Of a stretch of DNA of 64,000 nucleotides, positions 7,121-36,167 are shown in pieces. The stretch lies in the NCBI RefSeq assembly GCF_030013205.1, contig NZ_CP122648.1; one strand, given 5' to 3'. Both the position numbers and the translations under genes were made by a program. Positions within the stretch are counted from its first letter, which is position 1; each line of letters opens with the position of its first letter. This DNA comes from Escherichia coli (GTDB lineage Bacteria; Pseudomonadota; Gammaproteobacteria; Enterobacterales; Enterobacteriaceae). Below the pieces are notes generated by a model, which had not been told where the DNA came from, did not search any database, and saw only the letters and a program-made list of their open reading frames with translations.

Positions 7121-7196
7121 GCCCGGATAGCTCAGTCGGTAGAGCAGGGGATTGAAAATCCCCGTGTCCTTGGTTCGATTCCGAGTCCGGGCACCA
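7121..7196 (+). tRNA. pheU: tRNA-Phe (anticodon GAA)
   Basis: 76-nt cloverleaf sequence GCCCGGATAGCTCAGTCGGTAGAGCAGGGGATTGAAAATCCCC...CCA; anticodon loop TTGAAAA. Confidence 0.95.
7174..7196 (+). repeat. attL core (3' end of pheU), duplicated at 38277-38298
   Basis: 23 nt ttcgattccgagtccgggcacca; 22 of these recur (one G fewer) at 38277. Confidence 0.75.
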
Positions 7197-7393: not shown

Positions 7394-8656
7394 ATGGCAC
7401 TGACTGACGCAAAAATCCGGGCTGCAAAGCCCACTGACAAGGCTTATAAACTCACTGACGGGGCCGGCATGTTCCTGCTGGTTCATCCTAATGGTTCCCG
7501 TTACTGGCGTCTCCGCTATCGTATTCTGGGTAAGGAGAAGACTCTGGCACTTGGTGTGTATCCAGAAGTTTCTCTCTCCGAAGCTCGTACAAAACGGGAT
7601 GAGGCCCGAAAACTGATTTCAGAGGGGATTGACCCTTGCGAACAGAAAAGAGCTAAAAAAGTTGTCCCTGATTTACAGCTCTCTTTTGAACATATTGCAC
7701 GACGCTGGCATGCCAGTAATAAACAATGGGCACAATCACACAGCGATAAAGTACTCAAAAGCCTCGAGACACACGTTTTCCCCTTTATCGGCAACCGGGA
7801 TATCACAACACTCAGTACCCCGGACCTGCTTATCCCTGTTCGTGCTGCAGAAGCTAAACAAATTTATGAAATCGCCAGTCGTCTGCAGCAAAGAATATCT
7901 GCTGTAATGCGTTATGCCGTACAGTCTGGCATCATCAGATATAACCCGGCTCTGGATATGGCTGGTGCATTGACCACGGTAAAACGCCAGCATCGCCCTG
8001 CACTGGATCTTTCACGCCTGCCTGAACTTCTGTCGCGTATTGACGGTTATAAAGGCCAGCCTGTCACCCGACTGGCAGTTATGCTGAATTTACTGGTTTT
8101 TATTCGTTCCAGTGAACTCAGATACGCCCGCTGGTCTGAAATTGATATTGACAATGCCATGTGGACTATTCCAGCCGAACGCGAACCTCTGCCTGGCGTA
8201 AAATTCTCACACCGGGGCTCCAAGATGCGAACACCACATCTTGTGCCACTCAGCAAACAGGCTGTAGCCATACTGGCAGAACTACAGACATGGGCTGGTG
8301 AAAATGGTCTGATCTTTACGGGAGCACATGACCCGCATAAACCAATCAGTGAAAATACTGTAAATAAAGCCCTGAGGGTGATGGGGTATGACACAACCCA
8401 GGATGTCTGTGGCCATGGATTCCGTGCGATGGCATGTAGTGCGCTGATCGAATCAGGTTTGTGGTCCCGCGATGCTGTTGAACGTCAGATGAGCCATCAG
8501 GAACGTAACGGTGTACGCGCTGCGTATATCCATAAAGCCGAACATCTGGAAGAACGCCGGCTGATGCTACAGTGGTGGGCAGATTTTCTGAATGCGAACA
8601 GAGAGAAATGTATCAGTCCGTTTGATTATGCAAAGATCAACAATCCATTAAAATAG
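7394..8656 (+). CDS. int: P4-type tyrosine integrase
   Basis: 420 aa directly downstream of tRNA-Phe; N-terminal MALTDAKIRAAKP... and C-terminal HGFRAMA...RAAY tyrosine-recombinase signature. Confidence 0.9.
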   Translation: MALTDAKIRAAKPTDKAYKLTDGAGMFLLVHPNGSRYWRLRYRILGKEKTLALGVYPEVSLSEARTKRDEARKLISEGIDPCEQKRAKKVVPDLQLSFEHIARRWHASNKQWAQSHSDKVLKSLETHVFPFIGNRDITTLSTPDLLIPVRAAEAKQIYEIASRLQQRISAVMRYAVQSGIIRYNPALDMAGALTTVKRQHRPALDLSRLPELLSRIDGYKGQPVTRLAVMLNLLVFIRSSELRYARWSEIDIDNAMWTIPAEREPLPGVKFSHRGSKMRTPHLVPLSKQAVAILAELQTWAGENGLIFTGAHDPHKPISENTVNKALRVMGYDTTQDVCGHGFRAMACSALIESGLWSRDAVERQMSHQERNGVRAAYIHKAEHLEERRLMLQWWADFLNANREKCISPFDYAKINNPLK

Positions 8657-8819: not shown

Positions 8820-9005
8820 ATGCTGCAGGTTCCGACAGCGGCGGCAAATATGCAGCACATATTGTGCTCACTGATCGGCACCTGCCGTCTGAACAATGCG
8901 GAGTCAGAAAAATTGCTGCATTACGTCACAGATCATATGCAGGACTGGTCGGCAAACCGGGTACGCGATCTGTTGCCCTGGAAAGTTGATCTGACCTCTC
9001 AGTAA
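8820..9005 (+). pseudogene. IS66-family transposase C-terminal fragment
   Basis: 61-aa ORF ...LIGTCRLN...LLPWKVDL matches the C-terminus of the larger IS66-like fragment at 9730-10251. Confidence 0.5.
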
Positions 9006-9069
9006 ATATCAATACGGTTCTGGCGAGCCGCTTACAATCGAACTGGGATACAGGGAGATAAAACAGACG

Positions 9070-9429
9070 ATGCAACTGAGCAGGCTGACGCTGAGAAGTA
9101 AAAAGCCGGAGCTTGTGGAGCAAGAGCTGTGGGGTGTCTTACTGGCTTATAATCTGGTGAGATATCAGATGATTAAAATGGCGGAACATCTGAAAGGTTA
9201 CTGGCCGAATCAACTGAGTTTCTCAGAATCATGCGGAATGGTGATGAGAATGCTGATGACATTGCAGGGCGCTTCACCGGGACATATACCGGAGCTGATG
9301 CGCGATCTTGCAAGTATGGGACAACTTGTGAAATTACCGACAATAAGGGAAAGGGCCTTCCCGAGAGTGGTAAAGGAGAGGCCCTGGAAATACCCCACAG
9401 CCCCGAAAAAGAGCCAGTCAGTTGCTTAA
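9070..9429 (+). pseudogene. DDE transposase C-terminal fragment (IS4-like)
   Basis: 119-aa truncated ORF resembling a DDE transposase C-terminal region; no N-terminal catalytic part. Confidence 0.4.
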
Positions 9430-9753
9430 CTGACTGGCATTAGGCCGCCGGGGGCGTTTTTTTACCACCGGGACTTCGGACATAACGGTGTTTTCAGTAA
9501 GTACGACAGGTACTGTGGAGGCACTCCCGTAAAGACGGGCATCAAGTTCCCGCTCCGACATACCTGCGGGCAGAGGCCATGAAAGGCCAGCTTTTCGGAA
9601 GCGCACGAACATACCACAAACTGTTGATTTTGGTACGCCCAGGCGACGTCCGGCCACAATCCGTGGTAAATGTTCTTCAAAGTGAAGACGTAAAGCTTCA
9701 GTGATCCAGGTCCGGTATTCCATACGATAGTGTCCATTAAAAATGATGGACAT
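9418..9753 (-). pseudogene. transposase N-terminal HTH fragment (family uncertain)
   Basis: 111-aa ORF with HTH-like segment (RRLGVPKSTV), embedded among IS debris. Confidence 0.3.
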
Positions 9754-10251
9754 TATTTTTGTGGAGCCGGAGGAAACACACCAGACTGTTTAAATGAGCC
9801 GGTTACCGAAATACGCGGGTTGCCGGTGTCTGAACGCCTGGCGGTCAGGCAAATGCAGAGTAAACCGCTACTGACTTCCCTGTATAAGCTGATGCAGGAG
9901 AAAGAACACACATTATCGAAAAAATGCCGTCTGAGAGATGCGTTCCGGTATATCCGGAAGCACTGGGTTGCGTTGTGCAACTTCTGTGATGATGGTCTGG
10001 CGGAGGCGGATAATAATGCCGCGGAAAGAGCGCTTCGTGCAGTCTGTCTCGGAAAGAAAAACTTTATGTTCTTCGGCAGCGATCACGGCGGCGAGCGAGG
10101 AGCACTGTTGTACGGGCTGATCGGCACCTGCCGACTGAACGGTATCGATCCGGAAGCGTATCTGCGCCATATCCTGAGCGTACTGCCGGAATGGCCTTCC
10201 AACCGAGTTGACGAACTCCTGCCATGGAACGTAGTACTCACCAATAAATAA
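9730..10251 (+). pseudogene. IS66-family transposase (TnpC) C-terminal fragment
   Basis: 173-aa ORF ending ...GIDPEAYLRHILSVLPEWPSNRVDELLPWN; gtaagcg-type end motif about 40 bp downstream. Confidence 0.6.
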
Positions 10252-10385: not shown

Positions 10386-11714
10386 ATGAGCCACAGGGAA
10401 TTGTTCAGCGAATTTCTTGAAAATTTGAATCTTGACCTCAAACAGGCAAAAAAGATCAGCTATCACTATCGAAAAATAACCAAGTCATTAAATCTTGCGT
10501 TCAGAGGAACGAGTTCCCGGGTAGCAAACCGCTTGAAAGTGGGGTCAGTAGGCAGACATACCGCAATAAAAGGCATATCCGATCTGGATATGCTTTATAT
10601 TATGCCCCCCAATCAGTATGAATATTATAACCGTAAGGATAATGGTCAGTCTGCATTGCTTACAGATGTCAGAAACATTCTGGCGGAAGAATATCCTGAC
10701 CAGACTGTGAAAAAGGACAGACTGGTTGTTCAGATCATCTTTAAAAACTTTTATGTCGAGGTTCAACCTGTATTCAGACAGGATGATGACAGCTTTAAAT
10801 TCCCTGAAAGCTATAATGGAGGAGCATGGCGCATTACAAAACCTCTTCACGAAAAGGCGGCCATGACCGCATTTTCGCGAGATAAATCCAATAATCTGCG
10901 CAAGCTGTGTAAAATGATCAGAGCCTGGAAGAACCTGCATGGCGTCAATATGGGTGGCTTACTGATAGACACACTAGCGTATCGCTTTCTTTCATCAACA
11001 TCAGATTATGACAATACCGGAAATGGCAGCCTGGGAGCCCTCGCCAGAGACTTTTTTGAATATCTGTCAAATGAGGAGAGAAAGGAAAGGTATCTCGCGT
11101 TAGGCAGTAATCAGCATGTACGTGTTAAATCTCCCTGGTTTGGCCGGGCAGCGAAACACGCGTATGAATTATGTTGTGATGCCTTAGACGCTGAGGGGGC
11201 TGCCAGTGAAAATGACCGCTGGCGCAAAGTGTTCGGACGAGCCTTCCCCAGACGTAAAGTGGGTATTATGGAAGCCCGTCTTGGTCTGGAATCGCATGCG
11301 GCAGATGCTGTTCCCTGGACCGATACCGAAGAGTTTATAGAGGATAAATATCCGGTGGATATCAGGTACTCACTCAACCTTGACTGTACCGTAACCCAGG
11401 ATGGTTTCCCTCCCAGAAGCCTGAGGGAGATGCTTACCAGAAGATTCCGCCTCTCCGCTCGAAAATCTCTCCTTTTCCGGGCAGACTTGACAGAAATGGA
11501 GGCAGAGGAACCCTACACCGTTATGTGGAAGGTACTGAACGTGGGTGACGAAGCACGCAGAAGAAATATGATCCGGGGACAAATCGTTTCGGACGGCGGC
11601 TACTGTACGAAGAAAGAAACTACCGACTTCCGCGGAGATCACATGGTAGAATGCTATGTGATAAAAAATGAGGTTGTGGTTGCCCGGGCCCAGATTGAAG
11701 TTCCCATAAGCTGA
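10386..11714 (+). CDS. Pol-beta-fold nucleotidyltransferase with C-terminal extension (SMODS/CD-NTase-like plus AGS-C-like region)
   Basis: ATG with SD aaagga; GS-x10-SDLD nucleotidyltransferase signature (VGSVGRHTAIKGISDLD); about 150-aa C-terminal extension; AT-rich gene. Confidence 0.6.
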   Translation: MSHRELFSEFLENLNLDLKQAKKISYHYRKITKSLNLAFRGTSSRVANRLKVGSVGRHTAIKGISDLDMLYIMPPNQYEYYNRKDNGQSALLTDVRNILAEEYPDQTVKKDRLVVQIIFKNFYVEVQPVFRQDDDSFKFPESYNGGAWRITKPLHEKAAMTAFSRDKSNNLRKLCKMIRAWKNLHGVNMGGLLIDTLAYRFLSSTSDYDNTGNGSLGALARDFFEYLSNEERKERYLALGSNQHVRVKSPWFGRAAKHAYELCCDALDAEGAASENDRWRKVFGRAFPRRKVGIMEARLGLESHAADAVPWTDTEEFIEDKYPVDIRYSLNLDCTVTQDGFPPRSLREMLTRRFRLSARKSLLFRADLTEMEAEEPYTVMWKVLNVGDEARRRNMIRGQIVSDGGYCTKKETTDFRGDHMVECYVIKNEVVVARAQIEVPIS

Positions 11715-11721
11715 GGTTTTT

Positions 11722-12297
11722 ATGACGCAATCAGAGATGCTGAAATTAATCGCCCGACATGGTTATAACGTTGGATTTGGCGCTAAGAAAAACTTTGCCA
11801 CCTATGATCTGATTTGTAAGGCATCCGGTTGGATTAGCTTTATTTCTCTTGCTGTCGGTGTGTTCGCCCTTTTTATTCCTGAGCTGGCCACAAACGTCAT
11901 TTCCGCGATATTAATTATATTTGGTGTTGCTACAATGTACATTCAGTTTTATGACTCGGAAAAGCAGAGTTATGAAAGTGCGGGGATTGAGCAGACCAAA
12001 ATTTTTAATGAACTTGAAGTCATCTACCGCAACGTAAAAAGCGATGCAAACTTTGACTATCAGCGTACACAACAATCCATCGACGCTATCATGTCCCGGT
12101 TTTACGGCACGGTCATCAGCAAACAGATCTTCGGAAGTAACTGGTACGCACATTATAAATTTTACTGTGAATTTGAAAAAGCATGGGTTGAAGAAGAGCT
12201 GAACCTGACACTGAAGGACAAAATCCCGCTTTCGCTCTGCTTTCTCGCCGGTCTGGCGATCATTTTTACTATAGCTGTCATCTGGAAAACGCCCTGA
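11722..12297 (+). CDS. small multi-TM membrane protein (SLATT-like predicted effector)
   Basis: 191 aa, starts 8 nt after the nucleotidyltransferase stop with SD gagg; two adjacent N-proximal hydrophobic helices and one C-terminal helix. Confidence 0.55.
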   Translation: MTQSEMLKLIARHGYNVGFGAKKNFATYDLICKASGWISFISLAVGVFALFIPELATNVISAILIIFGVATMYIQFYDSEKQSYESAGIEQTKIFNELEVIYRNVKSDANFDYQRTQQSIDAIMSRFYGTVISKQIFGSNWYAHYKFYCEFEKAWVEEELNLTLKDKIPLSLCFLAGLAIIFTIAVIWKTP

Positions 12298-12848: not shown

Positions 12849-13574
12849 TTATGATGTACATAATACCTTAAAATTATCAACTAGCTGAGCATTAACCTCC
12901 ATCTGACTAATCCCCCATAATGCGGCTAACTGTTTCTCTGCAATCCCACTATCCCATGGCATTAGTGGGTCATTACGAAACTTAGCAAATGGCCCATCTG
13001 TTTCTGTAAGAATGCGTGATTTGGGTATTTTCAAAACTAAGGCCTTACCCTTTATTGTATCGAGCATAGCAGGCCCCACTGAGAACCAGCATCCTAAATC
13101 AATTGCCCTTTCAAGCTGCTTAGGTGTTCCAGTGAACCAATGCAATATTGCCACCCCATCGATATTTTCAATCTCATCAAGCACCGCTGATGCACTTCCC
13201 CGACTATGGATAGTCATAATCTTGCCACCAGCCCGATTTACACTGTTGAGAATGTGTCGGAACACTTTCAATTGAATATCCCAATGTTCTTTAAATCCCT
13301 GTCCACCATCAAGCCCTATTTCCCCTACATACTTAGTTTCCGAAAGCAATGAATCAAACAGGTCTAACTCATGCGATCTTTGATGCGCGATTTGAGGATG
13401 TAGCCCAAGAGCAGTTCGGATTCGTTGACTTTCTTTAGCCAATAAAGAAGTACCATGCCATGCTTTAGGTGTTGTTGTCACCGACAGAATATAAGTCCCT
13501 CGACGTTTACTTTCTTCAGCCACGAGGTCTGGCCGAGGATATAAGTCTAGATGACAGTGCATATCGATGCTCAT
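12849..13574 (-). CDS. qatD: TatD-family metal-dependent DNase (QatD)
   Basis: 241 aa; N-terminal HxH metal motif (MSIDMHCHLDLYP); start ATG overlaps qatC stop (ATGA). Confidence 0.8.
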   Translation of the reverse strand: MSIDMHCHLDLYPRPDLVAEESKRRGTYILSVTTTPKAWHGTSLLAKESQRIRTALGLHPQIAHQRSHELDLFDSLLSETKYVGEIGLDGGQGFKEHWDIQLKVFRHILNSVNRAGGKIMTIHSRGSASAVLDEIENIDGVAILHWFTGTPKQLERAIDLGCWFSVGPAMLDTIKGKALVLKIPKSRILTETDGPFAKFRNDPLMPWDSGIAEKQLAALWGISQMEVNAQLVDNFKVLCTS

Positions 13575-14890
13575 ACTATGTTCTCACTCAGTAAATAGCT
13601 TTCAACCTCATCCAGGCCATCCTTAAATACTTGCTTGAAATTATCAAATTCTGCCGTAGGCAAAGGGCCACTTTTGGCAATCCATGTACCTATTTTCAAA
13701 GTCGATTTCTGCGTGATCGCAATCCTAAGGGCGATCAGGTCGTCCCTGCGATCTATTTCATTCATTACTTTAGCTAAGGACTGGAAAATATATTCAACAT
13801 CTCTACTAATTCCCCCTGCATGAAGTGATGCTCGTCGAATGATACACGGTATACATACCCCACATTGCTGCCCCATTCGTTTCCAATGACTGCAGGATAC
13901 TGTACTTTCCACAATTTTAGATAAGAGCTGCTTATTTGAACATTCGGAGATCATTTTTCCTTTTGTCTTAAACTGATATGGATTGATTATTTGACAAGAA
14001 ATACCGAGCGCATCAAAGATCTTTTGTATGCTCGTAATAAAATGTGGATGTGTTGTTCGTGTGCTCAGCGAACCTATCCGCCGTGGAGTAAGTGGTGCAT
14101 TTAATGAGATAAATCCATTTTCAGGTACGAACAAATCAATCTTTTCTTGTTGAGATATCTCTTGTACGGCACAAGCACCTACGGCCGCAAAGGCAAGAAA
14201 ATTGAGGCTACGAGTTCGCATCGTAATATCAGTCACGCCTTGATAAATGTGTGGGTCAGCATTAATCTCAAAGCGCGAAAATTGGCCACTTAATTTTTCA
14301 GCAATCTGATCTTGACGAGACTTATCCCCCTTATAAGCATGACTAACCAAAAGTGGAGCGCGCCCTGCAGCCAGAAGATCTATTGCACCAATAGCTGAAT
14401 CCAGACCTCCTGAAAATAGGCTGACACAGTCAAGCCCTTTTAGCTTAATCAGACGATGCCTTGAATGCTGGCTATAAGGCTCTGGCGGTGCATAACCATC
14501 GTCACAAAATTCGAAATCCCAGATGTCTCCACTAAGAAAATGCAAAGCACTCTCAAGTTCTTTCTTTAGACTAATCCATCTGGATGGTTCATGAAGGGGG
14601 AGTCGTAACGACAATTGGCGGGTCCAACCATCCTCGGAACTTTCACGCTGAACGAAAGTATCTGCTGCAGTTACTGCTAATGCAACACTCAGAAAATCCA
14701 TGACCTTAGCTGGAAGCTGTACTCCCAAACGTCTGATCCGATCAATCGCAGGATTCCCGATAACAGATATATCTCCGCGCCTCTGACCACTTAATCCATA
14801 TAGCTGAACAGGTAACACTTTCTCACTTGCTGGCGGCAAATGGTGATGTTTATGATGGAAAACTAATTGTGTCACTGGTATGCCTCCCAT
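13571..14890 (-). CDS. qatC: QueC-like PP-loop ATPase (QatC)
   Basis: 439 aa; PP-loop SGGLDS; C-terminal Cys cluster CSHW...CGVCIPC as in QueC. Confidence 0.8.
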   Translation of the reverse strand: MGGIPVTQLVFHHKHHHLPPASEKVLPVQLYGLSGQRRGDISVIGNPAIDRIRRLGVQLPAKVMDFLSVALAVTAADTFVQRESSEDGWTRQLSLRLPLHEPSRWISLKKELESALHFLSGDIWDFEFCDDGYAPPEPYSQHSRHRLIKLKGLDCVSLFSGGLDSAIGAIDLLAAGRAPLLVSHAYKGDKSRQDQIAEKLSGQFSRFEINADPHIYQGVTDITMRTRSLNFLAFAAVGACAVQEISQQEKIDLFVPENGFISLNAPLTPRRIGSLSTRTTHPHFITSIQKIFDALGISCQIINPYQFKTKGKMISECSNKQLLSKIVESTVSCSHWKRMGQQCGVCIPCIIRRASLHAGGISRDVEYIFQSLAKVMNEIDRRDDLIALRIAITQKSTLKIGTWIAKSGPLPTAEFDNFKQVFKDGLDEVESYLLSENIV

Positions 14891-15624
14891 TCTTGCCAGG
14901 CCTCAATAATGGCCTGACGTTCAATTTTTACCATTTGGTTTCGTGTGAACGATCTTATGTTACCGGCAAGTTTTGGTGCCATATGTTTATCAACAACAAC
15001 TTTAATCAATTCCCGGAGTTCAATTTCTGCATGAATTGCCTTTGAAGGTGTATCTGCTTTGTTCCATGCCCTATTAGAATCCATTACCATCTGAAGGAAA
15101 ATACTTTCCGCTAGATAACCAATCATTGTGTCAACAATCACACCATCAGTTATTTTTTGAGGATCGAAAATTTCTACGCCATCAAGAGCCTCCACTAAAG
15201 CATGGTTCATGGCCGCACAGATCTTTTCTGAGTCACCATCCTGTGATGTTAAAGCTTGAGCAATAGTTGATATTGCTATTTCGCATGGAAGGCCTGCCAA
15301 ACTGCCCAAATCGATGCTTGGTTCTCCGGGAGCCGAAGGCATTCCCACTAAAGCCCCAAATAATTCGGCCCCAGCTTGCGTGACACTCCCTAATCGCCGA
15401 GCAGCGTTACTGCTCCCTCCGGAGGCTTTTCGCGCGTAGTGCCCTATGGCTTTTCTGAAATCTGCTCGATTTCCATTTGATACCGCATTTCCCAACGATT
15501 CTCGAAATGGCGCAAACCTCCTTTCTTGCGGCGAGGGTAACGGTTGCTGTGGCTGATCATCAGCCCATGGTGGAACCAGCGGAGAGCCACCTCCTGGACC
15601 TTTACTTGATTGTGATGTTCCCAT
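14872..15624 (-). CDS. qatB: QatB (function unknown)
   Basis: 250 aa Gly/Pro-rich protein between the KAP ATPase and QueC-like genes; start overlaps qatA stop by 1 nt, 3' end overlaps qatC by 19 nt. Confidence 0.65.
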   Translation of the reverse strand: MGTSQSSKGPGGGSPLVPPWADDQPQQPLPSPQERRFAPFRESLGNAVSNGNRADFRKAIGHYARKASGGSSNAARRLGSVTQAGAELFGALVGMPSAPGEPSIDLGSLAGLPCEIAISTIAQALTSQDGDSEKICAAMNHALVEALDGVEIFDPQKITDGVIVDTMIGYLAESIFLQMVMDSNRAWNKADTPSKAIHAEIELRELIKVVVDKHMAPKLAGNIRSFTRNQMVKIERQAIIEAWQEWEAYQ

Positions 15625-17408
15625 TAAGCGTCCTTATTCCATTGTTCATCTTTTAATGCTGCAGTCATCCACGCTGGTCGTTTCATCCCCAACTGTAATT
15701 CCTGTAGATAACGAATTAATATGCTGGCTGCATCTGTTGAGTAGCGGGCCAACAGACATGCGCCGGAAAAGCCTCTGGGCTTACGATCCCAATCTGATAC
15801 CTGCCGTAACTGGTTAATTAAACCTTCCATTACAGGTATTTGCTCCTCACGAGGAAGTGCTTTCAAAAGGTTTTCTGCTGTAGGAGAACTAGTGTTTTTC
15901 AATTCAATTAGTGCATTTAGTACTTCCCGTCCAGATGGCGATAAACCAACCACATATGCACCTATTGGCATAGTTTCTCGGGACAGATATATGGCGGCCC
16001 TTAAGTCAATCCCACCAAGACGAGGTTCAAGTTGGGCCCATTGACTGATGAAAGATTTAGTCGTTGGACTATCAGTCCATGTCTTTGGTGCATCAGTAGG
16101 TATTTGACCGCCATTATCGTCAAGCTGTTTAAGTATCTGGGGAACACCTTGTTCAATATCCACGAGATGATATAAATCAGCGGTGCCATCCACTCCAACA
16201 CAGCGTTCAAAAATTACTAGCTTAGTAATAATTGCTTCATCCAAAGGCATTGCTCGTCGCTTCGCAATTTGAGATCGCATTTTCACAACATTCAACAAGC
16301 GTTTAACGATCCTGGGATTACCATGAATAATTGGAGAGTTGGCTAAAATGGGAGCAATACGGTCAGCACGCGCAAACGCCAGCGCGAGGTTGCTATCATC
16401 CGCTTCACCAGTCATTTTTAAGGCCTCCTGACGTGAGATTGGTTCATCTTTCCAGGATTGCTGTAACGCCTTCTCTAAGCCCTCACGGAGCATAGTTATT
16501 TTTTCGCCTTCTAAGCCATGTTCAATGGCATAAAGCATGAACAGATACGAACGGATCTCACGGACCCCAGCCTTAGGCACCCGAATAGGAACCTGGATTA
16601 GCTTATCCAGATAATCTATTTGATGGCGCTGTGATGCCCCTTTGAAGTAATCAGCCACAGAAGAGCGAATCATGTCCTCATCTGCTGCAATAATAAAGGC
16701 TGTATTAGTCAAGAAAAGGAATAGCCTGATAGCTTCAAGTGTATGGATAGCATTGGCAGGGAGACAGCGGTCTAGGTTATCTATTACCACAATGAGTGGC
16801 TTTCCAAGTTCTTCTAGAATTTCCCCATATTCCTTACGAAAGGCATCAATCTGCTGAGGGGGGCTTTTTTTTGTTTGTGGTTTAATCAAACCACAAGCAG
16901 TTTCTTTACCTTCTTTAGCTATATTGCCTAAAGCCTCATACTCTTCCTGACTCTGGATGCCATCGGTGATATTTCTTAATGCACCAATCCCCCTAGAAAG
17001 CAAACCGCCAGTAGGTAATCCTGCCATTAAAGCTGTACCCTCAGCTAGTAATCCCATAGCTCTAAAACCATCAACTCGACTAAGGAGTCTCTTAGTTTTT
17101 GATATAAGGGTAGAATTACCTTCAGCAGCTTTTGTCAATTCTGTAGCGATGACTTCAAGAAGTGCGGCACGGGCGTCGTCGTACCCCTGATAGAGCCAAG
17201 AGTCAAAATTGATAACAATCCAATCTTTGTCGTCTTGCTCAAGTTTTTGCTCTATCAGTTTTAACAGAGAGGATTTACCTGCCCCCCAGTTTCCAAAAAT
17301 TCCGATAGATACTGGTAACATATCTTTCGTGGTAAGTACATCCACGGCTAACTGAGATACTTCACCAAAATTTAGGTAGTCTTCTGATGACTCTTTGTCT
17401 GACCACAT
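15624..17408 (-). CDS. qatA: KAP-family P-loop NTPase (QatA)
   Basis: 594 aa; Walker A GNWGAGKSS near N-terminus. Confidence 0.8.
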   Translation of the reverse strand: MWSDKESSEDYLNFGEVSQLAVDVLTTKDMLPVSIGIFGNWGAGKSSLLKLIEQKLEQDDKDWIVINFDSWLYQGYDDARAALLEVIATELTKAAEGNSTLISKTKRLLSRVDGFRAMGLLAEGTALMAGLPTGGLLSRGIGALRNITDGIQSQEEYEALGNIAKEGKETACGLIKPQTKKSPPQQIDAFRKEYGEILEELGKPLIVVIDNLDRCLPANAIHTLEAIRLFLFLTNTAFIIAADEDMIRSSVADYFKGASQRHQIDYLDKLIQVPIRVPKAGVREIRSYLFMLYAIEHGLEGEKITMLREGLEKALQQSWKDEPISRQEALKMTGEADDSNLALAFARADRIAPILANSPIIHGNPRIVKRLLNVVKMRSQIAKRRAMPLDEAIITKLVIFERCVGVDGTADLYHLVDIEQGVPQILKQLDDNGGQIPTDAPKTWTDSPTTKSFISQWAQLEPRLGGIDLRAAIYLSRETMPIGAYVVGLSPSGREVLNALIELKNTSSPTAENLLKALPREEQIPVMEGLINQLRQVSDWDRKPRGFSGACLLARYSTDAASILIRYLQELQLGMKRPAWMTAALKDEQWNKDA

Positions 17409-17539
17409 TTTTATATCCTTTACATCACCAATTTTTACGTCATTGAGTAAACTACAGGTTTGATAAAACCAACTCTGTTCAGGTGGGCAAATTCAGTGTA
17501 CCACTTCATCAATAATCCAATATGATGACTGCTATAGAT

Positions 17540-18742
17540 CTATTTTTTAAAGAATGAAATAAGCTTTCTTATCCCAGTCCATATTTTCCTATCAGAATCC
17601 GAAGGGTTAAATTCGCTCTTGTCAAAATCAGCAACCTCAGCAACCTCAGCAACCTCAGCAACCTCAGCAACCTCAGCAACCTCAGCAACCTCAGCAACCT
17701 CAGCAACCTCAGCAACCTCAGCAACCTCAGCAACCTCAGCAACCTCAGCAACCTCAGCAAGGTTTATTCTATTTTGATGAGCTGTCAAATGTTCTTTGTT
17801 AATTTCATCTCTAATTAGCTGTTCTTTTTCTATGCTGTAGTTTTTGTCATTATAAGTCACATCAAAATCATCTAAGAAAACGATATAAATCAATTTAAAA
17901 AAACTAGTCTTAAATAAAAAACTATCGCACTCATCAGGAAAACCAAAAAAGAAAACATTAAGATATTTGGTTGCTTTGCGCTTGTCTTTTAGTCCATTAT
18001 AATACTTATTTGCTTCTGCTCTTTGTTTTTCATACTCACTACAGAAAAAACTCTTTTTACTTTCATCCCATTCTGAAGCATCAATTTCAAGTTTATATGC
18101 TTGTTTGGTACCTTTCTTTCTGGCTAAAAAAGTAAGGTAATATCTATTCGAATTTATCTCCAGCCGTATATTAGATTGAATTTTACCAAAATAAATTGCT
18201 GGCTTATTATATCTAATTCCTTCTTTATAGATGATTAGTTGAAAAGTATCTTTATAAGTTCTAACTCCATAAGGGGGAATTGATAATGGTTCATAGAGAT
18301 TATCTCCATTAATGTAGTAGTCTACTACCGGTTTGATGCTTGAAGATGACACAGGGTGTACTTTACCTCCCAAATCTTTTTCATCATCTCGCGTCTGTTT
18401 GATAATTCTTCTGCCAGAAGAGTCGTAATTTCTTTCAGACACATCAAGTTTCAGAAGAGATATAGCTAATGCCGGTGGTGAATTATGCTTTTTATTATTC
18501 TTTGAGTTACACTTATTTTTACTCTTAGGATCATGAATCTTACATCCCGGCCTATGAGTCTCTTTATATCGAAAGTATGATTGATTTAAATTTATTTCTT
18601 TGAAGCTACATGGAGTAGCGGGTATCCTACATTTGTCATACGGGCATTCAAAAGTGGTTGTTCGTATATAAAGATCATCCATTTCCCGAAGATCATGACC
18701 ATGAACAATTTCACCACTAACAGAATCTCTTGCTATTGTCAC
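17540..18742 (-). CDS. hypothetical protein with N-terminal Cys cluster and C-terminal (Ala-Glu-Val)n repeat
   Basis: 400 aa; GTG start preceded by perfect SD AAGGAG at 5-nt spacing; C33/C38/C45/C67 with flanking His; AT-rich; co-directional with qatA 131 bp downstream. Confidence 0.6.
   Translation of the reverse strand: MTIARDSVSGEIVHGHDLREMDDLYIRTTTFECPYDKCRIPATPCSFKEINLNQSYFRYKETHRPGCKIHDPKSKNKCNSKNNKKHNSPPALAISLLKLDVSERNYDSSGRRIIKQTRDDEKDLGGKVHPVSSSSIKPVVDYYINGDNLYEPLSIPPYGVRTYKDTFQLIIYKEGIRYNKPAIYFGKIQSNIRLEINSNRYYLTFLARKKGTKQAYKLEIDASEWDESKKSFFCSEYEKQRAEANKYYNGLKDKRKATKYLNVFFFGFPDECDSFLFKTSFFKLIYIVFLDDFDVTYNDKNYSIEKEQLIRDEINKEHLTAHQNRINLAEVAEVAEVAEVAEVAEVAEVAEVAEVAEVAEVAEVAEVAEVADFDKSEFNPSDSDRKIWTGIRKLISFFKK
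17628..17760. repeat. perfect 9-bp tandem repeat (gcaacctca), about 14.8 copies, in-frame within the 400-aa CDS
   Basis: Direct reading of sequence; encodes the AEV repeat on the minus strand. Confidence 0.97.
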
Positions 18743-29389: not shown

Positions 29390-29432
29390 AAACGATCGAT
29401 AAAACAGGTATCGATCGCCATCATCGATCGTT
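29390..29432. promoter_or_regulatory. three clustered GATC sites upstream of Ag43 (Dam/OxyR phase-variation switch)
   Basis: GATC at 29394, 29413 and 29426 within 36 bp, about 220 bp upstream of the Ag43 start. Confidence 0.6.
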
Positions 29433-29646
29433 TATAGTGGTTAATGACCTGCGAAAAGGCAGTTGATTCTCTTCATCATGCAGAACGGAATTGCACACAA
29501 CGGACTGATGCTTCTCTGGCGGATGAGAGAGGGGAAGCATTTATGTCCGAGAAAAACCACTTTATCTGACCATGCTGTTTTGTACCTGCCGGTATCCACA
29601 TTTGTGGGTACCGGCTTTTTTATTCACCCTCTGTAAGGAAAAGCTG

Positions 29647-32493
29647 ATGAAACGACATCTGAACACCAGCTACAGGCTGGTATGGAATCACATTACGGGC
29701 ACCCTGGTGGTGGCTTCCGAACTGGCCCGCTCACGGGGGAAACGTACTGGCGTGGCGCTGGCGCTGTCTCTTGCCACCGCCACTTCAGTCCCGGCCCTGG
29801 CTGCTGACAGTGTTGTACAGGCAGGGGAAATCGTGAACGGCGGGACACTGGTAAATCATGACAACCAGATTGTCTTCGGTACGACCAACGGAATGACCAT
29901 CAGTACCGGGCTGGAGTATGGGCCGGATAACGAGGCCAATACCGGCGGGCAATGGGTACAGGATGGCGGCACAGCCAGTAATACCACCATCAGCAACGGC
30001 GGGCTCCAGTTTGTAGGTGCCGGGGGAAAGGCTACAGACACAATAATCAATGAAGGAGGCGGACAAAGTCTGAAGGGACTGGCACTGAACACCACGCTGA
30101 ATGGTGGCGAGCAGTGGATGCATGAAGGTGCGATAGCCACAGGAACCGTCATTAATGATAAGGGCTGGCAGGTCGTCAAACCCGGCGCAGTGGCAACAGA
30201 CACCGTTGTGAATACCGGCGCAGAAGGAGGACCGGATGCAGAAAATGGTGATACCGGGCAGTTTGTTCGCGGAAATGCCGTACGTACCACTATCAATAAA
30301 AATGGTCGTCAGATTGTGGTAGCCACCGGAGTGGCAAACACCACGGTGGTTTATGCCGGCGGCGACCAGACGGTACATGGCCACGCACTGGATACCACGC
30401 TGAATGGCGGTAACCAGTATGTGCACAACGGCGGTACAACGTCTGACACTGTTGTGAACAGTGACGGCTGGCAGATTATCAAGGAAGGTGGTCTGGCGGA
30501 TTTCACCACCGTTAACCAGAAAGGCAAACTGCAGGTGAACGCCGGTGGTACAGCCACGAATGTCACCCTGAAGCAGGGCGGCGCACTGGTCACCAGTACT
30601 GCTGCAACGGTTCTTGGCAGCAACCGTCTGGGGAATTTCACGGTGGAAAACGGTAAGGCTGACGGCGTTGTTCTGGAGTCCGGCGGTCGCCTGGATGTAC
30701 TGGAGGGCCATTCAGCGCAGAATACCCTGGTGGATGACGGCGGTACCCTGGCAGTGTCTGCCGGTGGTAAGGCAACAGATGTCACCATGACATCCGGTGG
30801 TGCCCTGATTGCAGACAGTGGTGCCACTGTTGAGGGGACCAATGCCAGCGGTAAGTTCAGTATTGATGGCATATCCGGTCAGGCCAGCGGCCTGCTGCTG
30901 GAAAATGGCGGCAGCTTTACGGTTAATGCCGGGGGACAGGCCGGTAACACCACTGTCGGATATCGTGGAACACTGACGCTGGCTGCCGGGGGAAGTCTGA
31001 GTGGCAGAACACAGCTCAGTAAAGGTGCCAGCATGGTACTGAATGGCGATGTGGTCAGTACCGGCGATATTGTTAACGCAGGGGAGATTCGCTTTGATAA
31101 TCAGACAACACCGGATGCCGCGCTGAGCCGTGCTGTTGCAAAAAGTAACTCCCCGGTAACGTTCCATAAACTGACCACCAGTAACCTCACCGGCCAGGGC
31201 GGCACCATCAATATGCGTGTCAGCCTTGATGGCAGTAATGCCTCAGACCAGCTGGTAATTAATGGTGGTCAGGCAACCGGCAAAACCTGGCTTGCGTTCA
31301 CAAATGTCGGAAACAGCAATCTCGGGGTGGCAACCTCCGGACAGGGTATCAGGGTTGTGGATGCACAGAATGGCGCCACCACAGAAGAAGGTGCGTTTGC
31401 CCTGAGTCGCCCGCTTCAGGCCGGCGCCTTTAACTACACCCTGAACCGTGACAGCGATGAAGACTGGTACCTGCGCAGTGAAAATACTTATCGTGCTGAA
31501 GTCCCCCTGTATGCCTCCATGCTGACACAGGCAATGGACTATGACCGGATTCTGGCAGGCTCCCGCAGCCATCAGACCGGTGTAAGCGGTGAAAATAACA
31601 GCGTCCGTCTCAGCATTCAGGGCGGTCATCTCGGGCACGATAACAACGGTGGTATTGCCCGTGGGGCCACGCCGGAAAGCAGCGGCAGCTATGGCTTCGT
31701 CCGTCTGGAGGGTGACCTGCTCAGAACAGAGGTTGCCGGTATGTCTCTGACGACAGGGGTGTATGGTGCTGCAGGCCATTCTTCCGTTGAAGTTAAGGAT
31801 GATGACGGCTCCCGCGCCGGCACGGTCCGGGATGATGCCGGCAGCCTGGGCGGATACCTGAATCTGGTACACACATCCTCCGGCCTGTGGGCTGACATTG
31901 TGGCACAGGGAACCCGCCACAGCATGAAAGCGTCATCGGACAATAACGACTTCCGCGCCCGGGGCTGGGGCTGGCTGGGCTCACTGGAAACCGGTCTGCC
32001 CTTCAGTATCACTGACAATCTGATGCTGGAGCCACAACTGCAGTACACCTGGCAGGGACTTTCCCTGGATGACGGCCAGGATAACGCCGGTTATGTGAAG
32101 TTCGGGCATGGCAGTGCACAACATGTGCGTGCCGGCTTCCGTCTGGGCAGCCACAACGATATGACCTTTGGTGAAGGCACCTCATCCCGTGACACCCTGC
32201 GCGACAGTGCAAAACACAGTGTGCGTGAACTGCCGGTGAACTGGTGGGTACAGCCTTCTGTTATCCGCACCTTCAGTTCCCGGGGTGACATGAGCATGGG
32301 GACAGCCGCTGCCGGCAGTAACATGACGTTATCACCGTCACAGAATGGCACGTCACTGGACCTGCAGGCCGGACTGGAAGCCCGTGTCCGGGAAAATATC
32401 ACCCTGGGGGTACAGGCCGGTTATGCCCACAGCGTCAGCGGCAGCAGTGCTGAAGGTTATAACGGTCAGGCCACGCTGAATGTGACTTTCTGA
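29647..32493 (+). CDS. flu: antigen 43 self-associating autotransporter
   Basis: 949 aa from ATG 29647 (MKRHLNTSYRLVWNH...); long Gly/Thr-rich beta-helix passenger and C-terminal beta-barrel. Confidence 0.9.
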   Translation: MKRHLNTSYRLVWNHITGTLVVASELARSRGKRTGVALALSLATATSVPALAADSVVQAGEIVNGGTLVNHDNQIVFGTTNGMTISTGLEYGPDNEANTGGQWVQDGGTASNTTISNGGLQFVGAGGKATDTIINEGGGQSLKGLALNTTLNGGEQWMHEGAIATGTVINDKGWQVVKPGAVATDTVVNTGAEGGPDAENGDTGQFVRGNAVRTTINKNGRQIVVATGVANTTVVYAGGDQTVHGHALDTTLNGGNQYVHNGGTTSDTVVNSDGWQIIKEGGLADFTTVNQKGKLQVNAGGTATNVTLKQGGALVTSTAATVLGSNRLGNFTVENGKADGVVLESGGRLDVLEGHSAQNTLVDDGGTLAVSAGGKATDVTMTSGGALIADSGATVEGTNASGKFSIDGISGQASGLLLENGGSFTVNAGGQAGNTTVGYRGTLTLAAGGSLSGRTQLSKGASMVLNGDVVSTGDIVNAGEIRFDNQTTPDAALSRAVAKSNSPVTFHKLTTSNLTGQGGTINMRVSLDGSNASDQLVINGGQATGKTWLAFTNVGNSNLGVATSGQGIRVVDAQNGATTEEGAFALSRPLQAGAFNYTLNRDSDEDWYLRSENTYRAEVPLYASMLTQAMDYDRILAGSRSHQTGVSGENNSVRLSIQGGHLGHDNNGGIARGATPESSGSYGFVRLEGDLLRTEVAGMSLTTGVYGAAGHSSVEVKDDDGSRAGTVRDDAGSLGGYLNLVHTSSGLWADIVAQGTRHSMKASSDNNDFRARGWGWLGSLETGLPFSITDNLMLEPQLQYTWQGLSLDDGQDNAGYVKFGHGSAQHVRAGFRLGSHNDMTFGEGTSSRDTLRDSAKHSVRELPVNWWVQPSVIRTFSSRGDMSMGTAAAGSNMTLSPSQNGTSLDLQAGLEARVRENITLGVQAGYAHSVSGSSAEGYNGQATLNVTF

Positions 32494-32820
32494 TAATCAG
32501 GTCACTCCCCTTCAGGCCCCGGCCATCATGACCGGGGCTTTTTACTTTCAGGGAGCAACAGATATGCCTGGTTGTACATCACGTTTATTGCCCGAAGGCC
32601 CTTTTGCTGCCAAATGGCATCTGAATCGATCACAGTTTGACCGGTTATTACCCGATCCCGATGGGGTTATTGGGTGATCTCCTTCCATAAAAATACGCAG
32701 CTCGCCAGTGAAGGGCTTCTCAGACAATAAACGTCATTCATTTCATCGGTCAGGCCGCGTCTTCTCCGGGAGACGCGGCTTTTTCATTTATACCGCTAAC
32801 TCATTCATAAGGAGCAAATC

Positions 32821-33639
32821 ATGCGATTAGCAAGTCGTTTTGGTCATGTAAACCAGATACGCCGTGACCGTCCGCTGACACATGAAGAACTGATGCACTA
32901 TGTACCCAGTATTTTTGGGGAAGATCGGCATACCTCCCGCAGTGAACGCTATGCGTACATTCCCACCATCACCGTACTGGAAAGCCTGCAGCGGGAAGGT
33001 TTTCAGCCATTCTTCGCCTGCCAGACCCGCGTGCGCGATCCGGGCCGCCGGGGATACACCAGACACATGCTGCGTCTGCGGCGGGCCGGGGAGATAACCG
33101 GACAACATGTCCCTGAAATTATTCTGCTCAACTCCCATGACGGTACCTCCAGCTACCAGATGCTGCCGGGTTACTTCAGATTCGTCTGCCAGAACGGCTG
33201 CGTCTGCGGTCAGTCTCTGGGGGAAGTCCGTGTGCCCCACCGGGGAAATGTGGTGGACAGAGTCATTGAAGGGGCTTACGAGGTAGTGGGCGTTTTTGAC
33301 CGGATTGAGGAAAAGCGTGATGCCATGCAGTCTCTGGTCCTGCCGCCACCGGCACGTCAGGCGCTGGCACAGGCGGCACTGACTTACCGTTATGGTGACG
33401 AACATCAGCCGGTCACCACCGCCGACATTCTGACGCCACGACGCAGGGAGGATTACGGTAAGGACCTGTGGAGTGCATATCAGACCATCCAGGAGAATAT
33501 GCTGAAAGGCGGGATTTCCGGTCGCAGCGCTAAAGGAAAACGTATCCACACCCGTGCCATTCACAGCATCGACACGGACATTAGGCTCAACCGCGCATTG
33601 TGGGTGATGGCAGAAACGCTGCTGGAGAGCCTGCGCTGA
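32821..33639 (+). CDS. DUF945/YfjQ-family protein
   Basis: 272 aa, SD aaggag; CP4-type island protein. Confidence 0.65.
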   Translation: MRLASRFGHVNQIRRDRPLTHEELMHYVPSIFGEDRHTSRSERYAYIPTITVLESLQREGFQPFFACQTRVRDPGRRGYTRHMLRLRRAGEITGQHVPEIILLNSHDGTSSYQMLPGYFRFVCQNGCVCGQSLGEVRVPHRGNVVDRVIEGAYEVVGVFDRIEEKRDAMQSLVLPPPARQALAQAALTYRYGDEHQPVTTADILTPRRREDYGKDLWSAYQTIQENMLKGGISGRSAKGKRIHTRAIHSIDTDIRLNRALWVMAETLLESLR

Positions 33640-33730
33640 TGCTGTTTCCCTGAAAGTGCAGCCCTGACTCACGTCTGTACCAGTCCCCAGGCATTCTTCC
33701 ATTCATTTGCTTTTTATAAGGAATAATCTC

Positions 33731-34216
33731 ATGACAACCTCTTCGCATAATTCCACCACACCTTCTGTTTCCGTAACCGCTGCATCAGGGAATAACCAGT
33801 CTCAACTGGTTGCCACTCCCGTCCCTGATGAACAGCGCATCAGTTTCTGGCCGCAGCACTTTGGCCTCATTCCACAGTGGGTGACCCTGGAGCCCCGTAT
33901 CTTCGGCTGGATGGACCGTCTGTGTGAAGACTACTGCGGTGGTATCTGGAATCTGTATACCCTGAACAACGGCGGGGCATTTATGGCACCCGAACCGGAT
34001 GACGATGATGACGAAACATGGGTACTGTTCAATGCCATGAACGGTAACCGCGCTGAAATGAGCCCGGAAGCCGCCGGTATTGCCGCCTGTCTGATGACGT
34101 ACAGCCATCATGCCTGTCGTACGGAGTGTTATGCCATGACGGTCCATTATTACCGGCTGCGGGATTACGCCCTGCAGCATCCTGAATGCAGCGCCATTAT
34201 GCGCATCATCGACTGA
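33731..34216 (+). CDS. antirestriction protein (YfjX/KlcA-like)
   Basis: 161 aa from ATG with SD aagga; acidic DDDDDE patch. Confidence 0.65.
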   Translation: MTTSSHNSTTPSVSVTAASGNNQSQLVATPVPDEQRISFWPQHFGLIPQWVTLEPRIFGWMDRLCEDYCGGIWNLYTLNNGGAFMAPEPDDDDDETWVLFNAMNGNRAEMSPEAAGIAACLMTYSHHACRTECYAMTVHYYRLRDYALQHPECSAIMRIID

Positions 34217-34230
34217 GCCGGAGAAGCACA

Positions 34231-34707
34231 ATGCAACAACTTTCCTTTCTGCCCGGAGAGATGACAACCAGAGAGCGCAGTCTCATTCTGCGGGCCCTGA
34301 AAACCCTGGACCGCCATCTTCATGAACCCGGTGTGGCCTTCACCTCCACGCATGCGGCACGGGAATGGCTGATTCTGAACATGGCAGGACTGGAGCGGGA
34401 AGAGTTCCGGGTACTGTATCTGAACAACCAGAATCAGCTGATTGCGGGTGAAACCCTCTTCACCGGCACCATCAACCGCACGGAGGTCCATCCCCGGGAA
34501 GTGATTAAACGTGCCCTGTACCACAATGCCGCTGCCGTGATACTGGCACACAACCACCCGTCCGGTGAAGTCACTCCCAGTAAGGCAGACCGGCTTATTA
34601 CGGAACGTCTGGTACAGGCACTGGCCATGGTGGATATCCGGGTGCCGGACCATCTGATAGTCGGTGGCAGCCAGGTTTTCTCCTTTGCCGAACACGGTCT
34701 GCTTTAA
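34231..34707 (+). CDS. RadC-like JAB-domain protein (YeeS/YfjY family)
   Basis: 158 aa; JAMM motif HNHPSGE. Confidence 0.8.
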   Translation: MQQLSFLPGEMTTRERSLILRALKTLDRHLHEPGVAFTSTHAAREWLILNMAGLEREEFRVLYLNNQNQLIAGETLFTGTINRTEVHPREVIKRALYHNAAAVILAHNHPSGEVTPSKADRLITERLVQALAMVDIRVPDHLIVGGSQVFSFAEHGLL

Positions 34708-34775
34708 CCCGTCACCGTCACAACCACATCACACCTGTTTTCACTTTTATCTTCTGTCTTCAGAGGTATCCCACC

Positions 34776-34997
34776 ATGAAAATTATCACCCGTGGTGAAG
34801 CCATGCGCATTCACCGTCAGCATCCGGCATCCCGTCTTTTTCCGTTCTGCACCGGTAAGTACCGCTGGCACGGCAGCACTGAGGCATATACCGGTCGTGA
34901 AGTGCAGGATATTCCCGGTGTGCTGGCCGTGTTTGCTGAACGCCGTAAGGACAGTTTTGGCCCGTATGTCCGGCTGATGAGTGTAACCCTGAACTGA
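34776..34997 (+). CDS. YeeT/DUF987-family protein
   Basis: 73 aa, SD gagg. Confidence 0.6.
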   Translation: MKIITRGEAMRIHRQHPASRLFPFCTGKYRWHGSTEAYTGREVQDIPGVLAVFAERRKDSFGPYVRLMSVTLN

Positions 34998-35015
34998 GTC
35001 AGGAAGGGAATTCTG

Positions 35016-35660: not shown

Positions 35661-35709
35661 CTCGTCATCGTTAAACTATCATTCACCGATTTTCTGTGAG
35701 GATTTTATC

Positions 35710-36078
35710 GTGTCAGACACACTCCATGAAACAAATTATCCCGACGACAACAACGACCGCTCCTGGTGGGGGCTACCCTGCACCGTGACGCCCTGTTTCA
35801 GGGCACGTCTGGTGCAGGAAGGGAACCGGTTGCATTACCTTGCAGACCGTGCCGGTATCAGAGGCCGGTTCAGCGACGCGGATGCGTACCATCTGGACCA
35901 GGCCTTTCCGCTGCTGATGAAACAACTGGAACTCATGCTCACCAGCGGTGAACTCAGTCCCCGCCATCAGCATACCGTCACGCTGTATGCAAAAGGGCTG
36001 ACCTGCGAAGCCGACACCCTCGGCAGTTGTGGCTACGTTTATATGGCTGTTTATCCGACGCCCGAAACGAAAAAGTAA
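35710..36078 (+). CDS. cbeA: CbeA/YeeU-family type IV antitoxin
   Basis: 122 aa from GTG 35710 with SD gagga (MSDTLHETNYPDD...WWGLPCTVTPCF...). Confidence 0.8.
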   Translation: MSDTLHETNYPDDNNDRSWWGLPCTVTPCFRARLVQEGNRLHYLADRAGIRGRFSDADAYHLDQAFPLLMKQLELMLTSGELSPRHQHTVTLYAKGLTCEADTLGSCGYVYMAVYPTPETKK

Positions 36079-36167
36079 ATAATCAGAATAACCTTCTGCT
36101 CCGGCCAGGTGCTTTCACCACACCACTTTCCCATTTCTCATCTCTGCATATCAGGAAAATCTTCAGT

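Follow-up and report, generated by a model that had tools for sequence, protein, structure and literature searches.

Does the gene cluster at positions 12849-17408 of a 64,000-nucleotide stretch of Escherichia coli DNA (contig NZ_CP122648.1; hereafter, the window) encode an intact QatABCD system, and how much of the mechanism described for other Qat systems might apply to it? An earlier note on this DNA had read the region as a QatABCD operon, and sequence comparison supports that reading. We propose that the cluster is very probably an intact QatABCD operon, expressed as a unit, that forms part of a compact gammaproteobacterial clade and lies in a tRNA-Phe island of E. coli, and that a mechanism can be transferred to it from studied relatives. 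QatABCD is an already known system, which PADLOC recognises at this locus and RefSeq annotates in part.

Gene content and protein families

The open reading frame map places all four genes on the minus strand, which the earlier note had left unspecified; they are co-oriented, in the canonical order qatA-qatB-qatC-qatD, and at exactly the coordinates that it had given:

17409-17539, minus strand: region 5' of qatA, 131 nt, with an AAGGA Shine-Dalgarno sequence ~8 nt before the ATG (direct reading)
15624-17408, minus strand: qatA, KAP-family P-loop NTPase, 594 aa
14872-15624, minus strand: qatB, 250 aa
13571-14890, minus strand: qatC, QueC-like PP-loop ATP pyrophosphatase, 439 aa (434 aa from GTG 14875)
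12849-13574, minus strand: qatD, TatD-family metal-dependent nuclease, 241 aa

We compared the proteins with the PADLOC Qat models, the NCBIfam equivalogs NF041923-NF041926 with their curated cut-offs, and Pfam. Each of the four was matched best, and over its full length, by its own PADLOC Qat model. The family assignments made earlier therefore stood for all four proteins in PADLOC and for QatC and QatD in NCBIfam, and did not stand for QatA and QatB in NCBIfam, where both fell below the cut-offs. The motifs that had been claimed (QatA Walker A, QatC SGGLDS with a Cys cluster, and QatD HxH, here H6-C-H8) were all found, and a search for inactivating mutations in them turned up none: the four open reading frames are full length and every motif residue is intact.

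QatA matched the PADLOC QatA model (PDLC02210) with 1133 bits over residues 1-593/593 and Pfam KAP_NTPase (PF07693) at 1.8e-54, and scored 386 bits against NF041923, under its cut-off of 600. Its Walker A motif, G39-NWGAGKS-S47 with K45 included, is encoded at 17268-17294, and its Walker B motif reads IVVID210N; this D210 (16779-16781) has the number of a residue that Gao et al. 2020 mutated (cited in PMC13376578). A sequence search of the PDB with QatA gave no match, and the AF2 model was poor (pLDDT 67, pTM 0.40). The best PDB fold match of this low-confidence model was heptameric RdrA, with low TM-scores (0.2-0.3), and QatA has been reported as 7-8-mers (PMC13279940). QatA also matched PADLOC PifA at 2e-27. 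We take the possible resemblance of QatA to RdrA as a lead, not as a claim of membership.

QatB matched the PADLOC QatB model (PDLC02212) with 433 bits over residues 1-249, scored 75 bits against NF041924, under its cut-off of 100, and had no match in Pfam, where the 'QatB' family PF28083 is evidently newer than the release searched. The protein consists of a disordered tail of ~25-30 residues followed by an all-alpha globular domain; the AF2 model had a pLDDT of 86 overall and below 50 for residues 1-25, and its significant PDB matches by Foldseek were only to the QatB chains 9y01_A and 9y02_A. The N-terminal MGTS, encoded at 15613-15624, was invariant in 112/112 full-length relatives, and L16, P18 and W20 in the tail were invariant or nearly so among relatives. 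Both MGTS and the Pro/Trp tail motif are essential in a studied QatB (PMC13279940).

QatC scored 413 bits against NF041925 (cut-off 280) and 467 bits, over its full length, against the PADLOC QatC model, and matched the PDB QatC chains 9zee_B (E 3e-63) and 9vlk_A (7e-54) at ~37-38% identity, with an alignment that covers residues 46-434; the N- and C-terminal extensions are present. The PP-loop S160-GGLD-S165 (SGGLDS) lies at 14396-14413 and the zinc cysteines C333 and C343-GVC346-IPC349 at 13844-13894. Set against QueC, as the earlier note had suggested, QatC has SGGLDS and the four zinc cysteines, and T277 and T279 (14054-14062) replace the CDG-binding Tyr/Asp of QueC. Motifs described for Cluster 2 (PMC13329287) are also present: D65, D77(x)4R82(x)6W89xR91, D122xWxxxF128, R225xRxxxF231, E257xG259, H281-P282 and P304(x)4TK310. 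We rejected the possibility that QatC is a canonical QueC (preQ0 synthase), given its score of 21 bits against the TIGR00364 cut-off of 150 and the replaced CDG-binding residues; its match to Pfam QueC was fragmentary only. In phage genomes no close relative of QatC was found, only partial, 29%-identical matches in Listeria phages.

QatD scored 331.5 bits against NF041926 (cut-off 230), 322 bits over its full length against the PADLOC QatD model, and 3e-43 against Pfam TatD_DNase (PF01026), and in the PDB it matched 9xsn_A (6e-75) and 3gg7_A (6e-66). Its metal ligands are H6/H8 (13551-13559), E85, H123, H145 and E191/D193, in motifs that align with solved TatD-family structures including human TATDN3 (2y1h). 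A housekeeping TatD, YcfH or YjjV identity was rejected (37-41 bits against cut-offs of 395-481).

Gene junctions

Of the overlaps that the earlier note had described, the 1-nt TAATG junction of qatA and qatB and the 4-nt ATGA junction of qatC and qatD are as stated, while the 19-nt overlap of qatB and qatC hinges on an uncertain start, holding if qatC begins at ATG 14890, as RefSeq calls it. An in-frame GTG at 14875, with a GGGAGG box 7 nt upstream, would instead give a 4-nt GTGA overlap, and in two distant relatives with a 434-aa QatC gene callers choose the equivalent of 14875, where one of them has ATG. The RefSeq-annotated qatC start may thus be 15 nt too far upstream, with a 4-nt GTGA overlap in its place. 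Overlapping junctions were also kept in relatives at 60-79% protein identity. We infer from these junctions, as had been proposed, that the Qat genes may be co-expressed stoichiometrically; in the NCTC9009 system, a 1:1:1 complex of QatB, QatC and QatD has been reported, with QatA staying outside (preprint, bioRxiv 10.1101/2025.11.03.686418). In a consensus scan for promoters and terminators, the 131-nt gap upstream of qatA contained neither a sigma-70-like site nor a terminator, nothing was found 3' of qatD, and matches overall were fewer than in shuffled controls; no inverted repeat suggestive of a terminator was found either.

Conservation and annotation

The 4.9-kb Qat DNA was 100% identical in at least 13 E. 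coli chromosomes among the matches listed, and at least 99% identical in ~250/5426 complete genomes, CFT073 among them (~4.5% of complete E. coli). The protein alleles are common RefSeq WP sequences, found across strains. In relatives at 60-79% protein identity, gene lengths were unchanged (594/250/434/241 aa) with zero indels, and against these relatives pS was 0.80-0.87, indicating saturated synonymous sites, while pN was only 0.12-0.27. The constant lengths without indels and the saturated pS with low pN indicate that these are not chance open reading frames, and the Qat genes appear to be under strong purifying selection relative to these relatives. Gene content, order, coupling and intactness, together with the QatB fold and the conservation of every functionally tested residue, are established directly for this locus. 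The residues that mutagenesis has found essential in other Qat systems are all there, among them MGTS of QatB, SGGLDS (S160/D164/S165), T277/T279 and the zinc cysteines of QatC, K45 and D210 of QatA, and the metal ligands of QatD.

RefSeq labels identical DNA qatC and qatD, and gives qatA and qatB as 'KAP family P-loop NTPase fold protein' and 'hypothetical protein', because both score under the NCBIfam cut-offs. We read these misses as clade divergence, not decay, since the QatB model matches only solved QatB and all motif residues are retained. In NCBIfam, the models for QatA and QatB appear to be tuned to the NCTC9009-type clade, and their cut-offs miss a common enterobacterial Qat clade, leaving two of the four genes without a Qat name in most of the RefSeq records examined. 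Genome annotation gains little from this result, as PADLOC and, in part, RefSeq already recognise the system.

Proposed mechanism

We build the proposed steps on studies of NCTC9009 and P. aeruginosa Qat (PMC13279940, PMC13376578, bioRxiv 10.1101/2025.11.03.686418) and transfer them by residue conservation; how complexes form, the chemistry of conjugation and what QatA and QatD do in the compact clade are inferences. Removal of the initiator Met of QatB would expose Gly2. The helical domain of QatB would bind QatC 1:1, with the flexible N-terminal tail threading into the QatC active site, where QatC would spend ATP adenylating a carboxylate substrate and join this substrate to the N-terminal amine of QatB. 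The substrate is probably other than CDG, the QueC substrate, because Thr277/Thr279 stand in place of the CDG-recognising Tyr/Asp. The QatBC pair would form the core of the defence, the TatD-type nuclease QatD might be tethered by the same QatB tail, and QatA would be a DNA-binding, ring-forming KAP ATPase, a separate accessory that widens the phage range. The conjugation step is hypothetical in every Qat system, because QatB modification has gone undetected and QatC activity has not been reconstituted in vitro (PMC13279940; bioRxiv 10.1101/2025.11.03.686418), and the earlier statement that the Qat mechanism is incompletely understood is accurate in 2026 (PMC13279940, PMC13376578, bioRxiv 10.1101/2025.11.03.686418).

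The transfer spans only ~37% identity in QatC and ~27% in QatB, and QatA and QatB score under the NCBIfam cut-offs, points that weigh against it. Published reports disagree on QatA and QatD: NCTC9009 requires both, and the P. aeruginosa system can do without them against lambda-vir. A literature search, including qatABCD together with CFT073, found no paper testing the compact Qat clade. We consider it unlikely that this clade is functionally unlike the studied systems, whether in the first substrate of QatC or in how far it depends on QatA and QatD, or that it is modulated by the hypervariable repeat gene that in E. coli always lies just 5' of it. The clade is native to CFT073, which offers a native-context model for what QatC attaches to QatB, and this strain is genetically tractable, so it could suit attempts to catch the elusive QatB modification.

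The homology of QatC to QueC and the TatD nuclease QatD would also accommodate a modification-dependent restriction system, in which QatC-derived 7-deazaguanine marks host DNA, QatD degrades unmodified phage DNA, and QatB perhaps depolarises the membrane, an effector role proposed in the PhageMaP preprint. Bas63 rIIA/rIIB-like genes counter qatABCD, for which a RexAB-like membrane step has been proposed (PhageMaP preprint, bioRxiv 10.1101/2024.10.10.617714). We regard this explanation as quite improbable: QatC falls far short of the canonical QueC cut-off and has Thr/Thr for the Tyr/Asp of QueC and Cap9, the NCTC9009 QatC fails to rescue a queC deletion in E. coli (PMC13329287), and the operon lacks a transglycosylase for base insertion into DNA. 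Moreover, QatBC without QatD suffices against lambda-vir (PMC13279940), and QatB is modelled as a soluble helical bundle, with solved QatB as its only match.

Genomic context

In the E. coli tRNA-Phe island, the Qat operon has two neighbours: a type I CBASS (10386-12297) and, just upstream of qatA, a repeat gene (17540-18742) with a variable 9-bp repeat. The CBASS has a cyclase and a SLATT effector and nothing else; it runs on the other strand, convergent with qatD, and its CD-NTase begins with MSHREL, without a Gly motif. PADLOC found no further defence system among nine other island ORFs, a weak LeoBC-like GTPase match aside. A type IV CBASS identity for the neighbour was rejected, as it has no Cap9 or Cap10 and its CD-NTase has no Met-Gly start; functional coupling of QatC to this adjoining CD-NTase, by analogy with type IV CBASS, was likewise rejected, because the cyclase lacks an N-terminal Gly motif and the two systems are not neighbours at the loci examined outside E. 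coli.

The conserved arrangement raises the question of whether the repeat gene, qatABCD and the type I CBASS instead work together as a single composite system, a block of ~8.4 kb. Within E. coli the junctions are kept nearly as often as Qat itself (CBASS-qatD in 242 genomes and repeat-gene-qatA in 241, Qat in 242-245), and the block recurs by different flanks in three genomes (dsbD/dicD, yqgA/speC, and grp genes, the last in CFT073). Neither neighbour, however, accompanies this Qat clade at the loci examined outside E. coli, and in CFT073 the repeat gene carries a frameshift. The CBASS has the opposite orientation, and its cyclase lacks the kind of N-terminal Gly motif used by QueC-type enzymes. 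Recent co-inheritance, rather than selection for linkage, would account for the >99% identity of the block, and we hold a composite system to be very unlikely.

The operon is almost certainly not a decaying, non-functional remnant: transposase fragments (IS66, IS4 and others) and several pseudogenes flank it and some strains have disrupted copies (e.g., an IS3 insertion in SCU-116), but its four full-length open reading frames with all motif residues intact, its alleles common across strains and the strong purifying selection apparent against relatives all speak against decay.

Comparison with known systems

RADAR RdrA and F-plasmid PifA have a KAP P-loop domain in common with QatA. In type IV CBASS, the QueC-family enzyme Cap9 takes the N-terminal Gly of its partner into its active site (Wassarman et al. 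2025, as cited in PMC13279940), a feature that QatBC would share by analogy. QatC, with its Thr/Thr, differs from Cap9, which retains the CDG-binding Tyr/Asp; Cap10 is missing from the operon, and the adjacent CBASS is type I, not type IV.

The P. aeruginosa qatABCD (9zee/9zef, 9y01/9y02; PMC13279940) shares the QatB fold with this locus (Foldseek probability 1.0) despite ~17% identity of the fold-aligned QatB, and its QatC is ~38% identical; every residue of the active site and the tail that has been probed by mutagenesis is conserved here. NCTC9009 QatABCD (Gao et al. 2020; 9vlk/9vll; bioRxiv 10.1101/2025.11.03.686418; PMC13376578) carries these four genes in identical order, and in common with this locus it has the KAP ATPase Walker B D210, the QatB MGTS, the QatD TatD ligands, and the SGGxDS, Thr-x-Thr and CGxCxxCxxRR motifs of QatC. 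The two differ in sequence and size: QatC is ~37% identical, with 439/434 aa here and 465 aa in NCTC9009, and QatB is ~27% identical, with 250 aa and a shorter tail here against 282 aa. The first zinc cysteine precedes CGxC by 9 residues here and by 19 in NCTC9009. The clade described here is compact, with a QueC-like short zinc loop in QatC and a short QatB tail.

Organization of the qat operon

Four minus-strand open reading frames occupy 12849–17408, bearing out the four-gene Qat operon that the earlier note had read there.

Open reading frames of the qat operon
15624–17408, minus: qatA, 594 aa
14872–15624, minus: qatB, 250 aa
13571–14890, minus: qatC, 439 aa
12849–13574, minus: qatD, 241 aa

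The motifs named in that reading were found: the QatA Walker A (G39-NWGAGKS-S47), the PP-loop (S160-GGLD-S165) and cysteine cluster (C333, C343, C346 and C349) of QatC, and the TatD HxH motif of QatD (H6-C-H8). The Walker B of QatA is IVVID210N. Direct reading confirmed the TAATG junction of qatA and qatB (1-nt overlap) and the ATGA junction of qatC and qatD (4-nt overlap). The 19-nt overlap claimed for qatB and qatC holds for the annotated qatC start, but the true overlap may be 4 nt, because a GTG at 14875, codon 6 of annotated qatC, shares the sequence GTGA with the end of qatB and is preceded by a GGGAGG box 7 nt upstream, and because gene callers place the start at the equivalent position in two distant relatives (434 aa; the codon is ATG in one of them). 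The annotated qatC start may be mis-set, which would be a small addition to existing knowledge. The upstream ATG sits within the qatB codons for Glu-Trp-Glu and is conserved for that reason, used or not. qatB and qatC are translationally coupled whichever start applies, and the 1-nt/4-nt junction pattern is kept in relatives.

All four genes are identical in length, with zero indels, to those of two relatives outside E. coli (L004 and L006; 60–79% protein identity). Synonymous differences from these relatives are saturated (pS = 0.80–0.87) and non-synonymous differences are 0.12–0.27. By this comparison, qatABCD code for proteins and evolve under strong purifying selection.

Family assignment

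PADLOC, which had been suggested as a check, matched all four proteins to Qat models.

Profile matches of the four Qat proteins
QatA: PADLOC 1133 bits (1–593 of 593); NCBIfam 386, fails cut-off of 600; Pfam KAP_NTPase, 1.8e-54
QatB: PADLOC 433 bits; NCBIfam 75, fails cut-off of 100; Pfam, no match
QatC: PADLOC 467 bits; NCBIfam 413, passes cut-off of 280; Pfam QueC, weak and split
QatD: PADLOC 322 bits; NCBIfam 331.5, passes cut-off of 230; Pfam TatD_DNase, 3e-43

Because QatA and QatB miss their NCBIfam cut-offs, RefSeq names them "KAP family P-loop NTPase fold protein" and "hypothetical protein"; this threshold gap is a small addition to existing knowledge of the clade. The canonical QueC model TIGR00364 gave QatC only 21 bits (cut-off 150). 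In the AlphaFold2 model of QatB (pLDDT 86), 25 disordered N-terminal residues precede a helical domain, and the solved QatB chains 9y01_A and 9y02_A were its only significant PDB matches. The best PDB match of a low-confidence AlphaFold2 model of QatA (15624–17408) was the heptameric RdrA ring ATPase of RADAR, which agrees with the published 7–8-mer estimate for QatA, but the TM-scores of the match are only 0.2–0.3; PADLOC links the KAP domain of QatA to PifA.

Genomic context and distribution

The operon lies within a ~31-kb island that adjoins tRNA-Phe and contains IS fragments.

Features of the island around the qat operon
7121–7196: tRNA-Phe, left edge of the island
7394–8656: tyrosine integrase, after tRNA-Phe at the left edge
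10386–12297, plus: two-gene type I CBASS, convergent with qatD
10386–11714, plus: CD-NTase, 442 aa (PADLOC cyclase, 587 bits)
11722–12297, plus: SLATT 2TM effector (SLATT_6), 191 aa
17540–18742, minus: repeat-carrying ORF, 400 aa, directly upstream of qatA

A copy of the tRNA 3' end and adjoining island sequence (38277–38431, 91% identical), just before cadC (38915), suggests either the right-hand end of the island or what is left of a second insertion. Between the integrase and CBASS (8820–10251) are pieces of IS66-family and IS4-family transposase genes, which RefSeq relatives annotate as pseudogenes. A segment of ~4 kb (32669–36726), between the Ag43 gene and a DUF957/DUF4942 module, is missing from the otherwise near-identical K_EC180 chromosome. 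An Rfam IS102 RNA match (29392–29628, plus; 68 bits, gathering score 46) lies directly upstream of a 973-aa Ag43/Cah autotransporter ORF (29572–32493) and overlaps its start.

The CBASS–qatD junction is conserved in 242 E. coli genomes, and the repeat gene, qatABCD and CBASS move as a single block in E. coli, with flanking genes that differ across three genomes. Among the relatives compared in other taxa, neither CBASS nor the repeat gene adjoins the same Qat clade, and the repeat gene is a frameshifted pseudogene in CFT073; we therefore regard both as co-inherited neighbours and not as Qat components. The CBASS cyclase has the N-terminus MSHREL, which rules it out as a candidate substrate of QueC-type enzymes. 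The repeat ORF contains a perfect 9-bp tandem repeat (x14.8; 17628–17760) encoding (Ala-Glu-Val)n. In the listed E. coli genomes, the locus is shorter or longer than in the window by multiples of 9 bp (−63 to +279 bp), which makes the tract a hypervariable VNTR that stays in frame. This ORF had no Pfam or NCBIfam match and a weak PADLOC match to PD-Lambda-4_B (4e-6).

A 4.9-kb query spanning the operon had a 100% identical counterpart in at least 13 of the E. coli chromosomes listed, most of them from porcine ETEC/O139 strains, and matched at ≥99% identity in ~250 of 5426 complete genomes, CFT073 among them. Conjugative plasmids of Xenorhabdus and Shewanella also carry members of the clade, which is present across Enterobacterales, Aeromonas, Pseudomonas, Marinobacter and others. 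Matching genes are already named qatC and qatD in database records; the operon is a known, annotated system and not new, and that its clade is native to CFT073 is a small addition to existing knowledge. The QatABCD observation is confirmed and its interpretation supported.

Proposed mechanism and comparison with studied Qat systems

[quoted passage not shown] The same four publications report that defence is abolished or severely reduced by QatB G2D and tail deletions and by QatC SGGxDS, Thr-to-Ala and zinc-cysteine mutants, that use of CDG (the substrate of canonical QueC) by QatC was not detectable, and that no QatB adduct was found. Transferred by residue conservation, the published mechanism is the best-supported account of the window's operon: QatC would adenylate a carboxylate and ligate it to Gly2 of QatB, QatB would bridge QatC and the nuclease QatD, and QatA would act as a separate ring ATPase that broadens phage range. 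The ligation chemistry is putative for every Qat system. The older idea that Qat modifies DNA and restricts DNA fits poorly, because QatC has a remodelled active site, no transglycosylase is encoded in the operon, NCTC9009 QatC did not complement a queC deletion (PMC13329287) and QatBC alone suffices against lambda-vir (PMC13279940).

Every residue reported as functionally important in the studied systems is kept in the window proteins. QatB carries MGTS (invariant in 112/112 full-length relatives), L16, P18 and W20; QatC carries S160, D164, S165, T277, T279, the four cysteines and the Cluster 2 motifs (PMC13329287); QatA carries D210; and H6, H8, E85, H123, H145 and D193 of QatD align with solved TatD-family structures. 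The part of the literature searched contained no experimental test of this clade. Despite the conserved residues, the clade is divergent in sequence: QatC shares ~37–38% identity with the two crystallised QatCs and QatB ~27% with 9vll_A, and the spacing from the first cysteine to CGxC in the zinc loop is 9 residues in the window QatC compared with 19 in the studied proteins.
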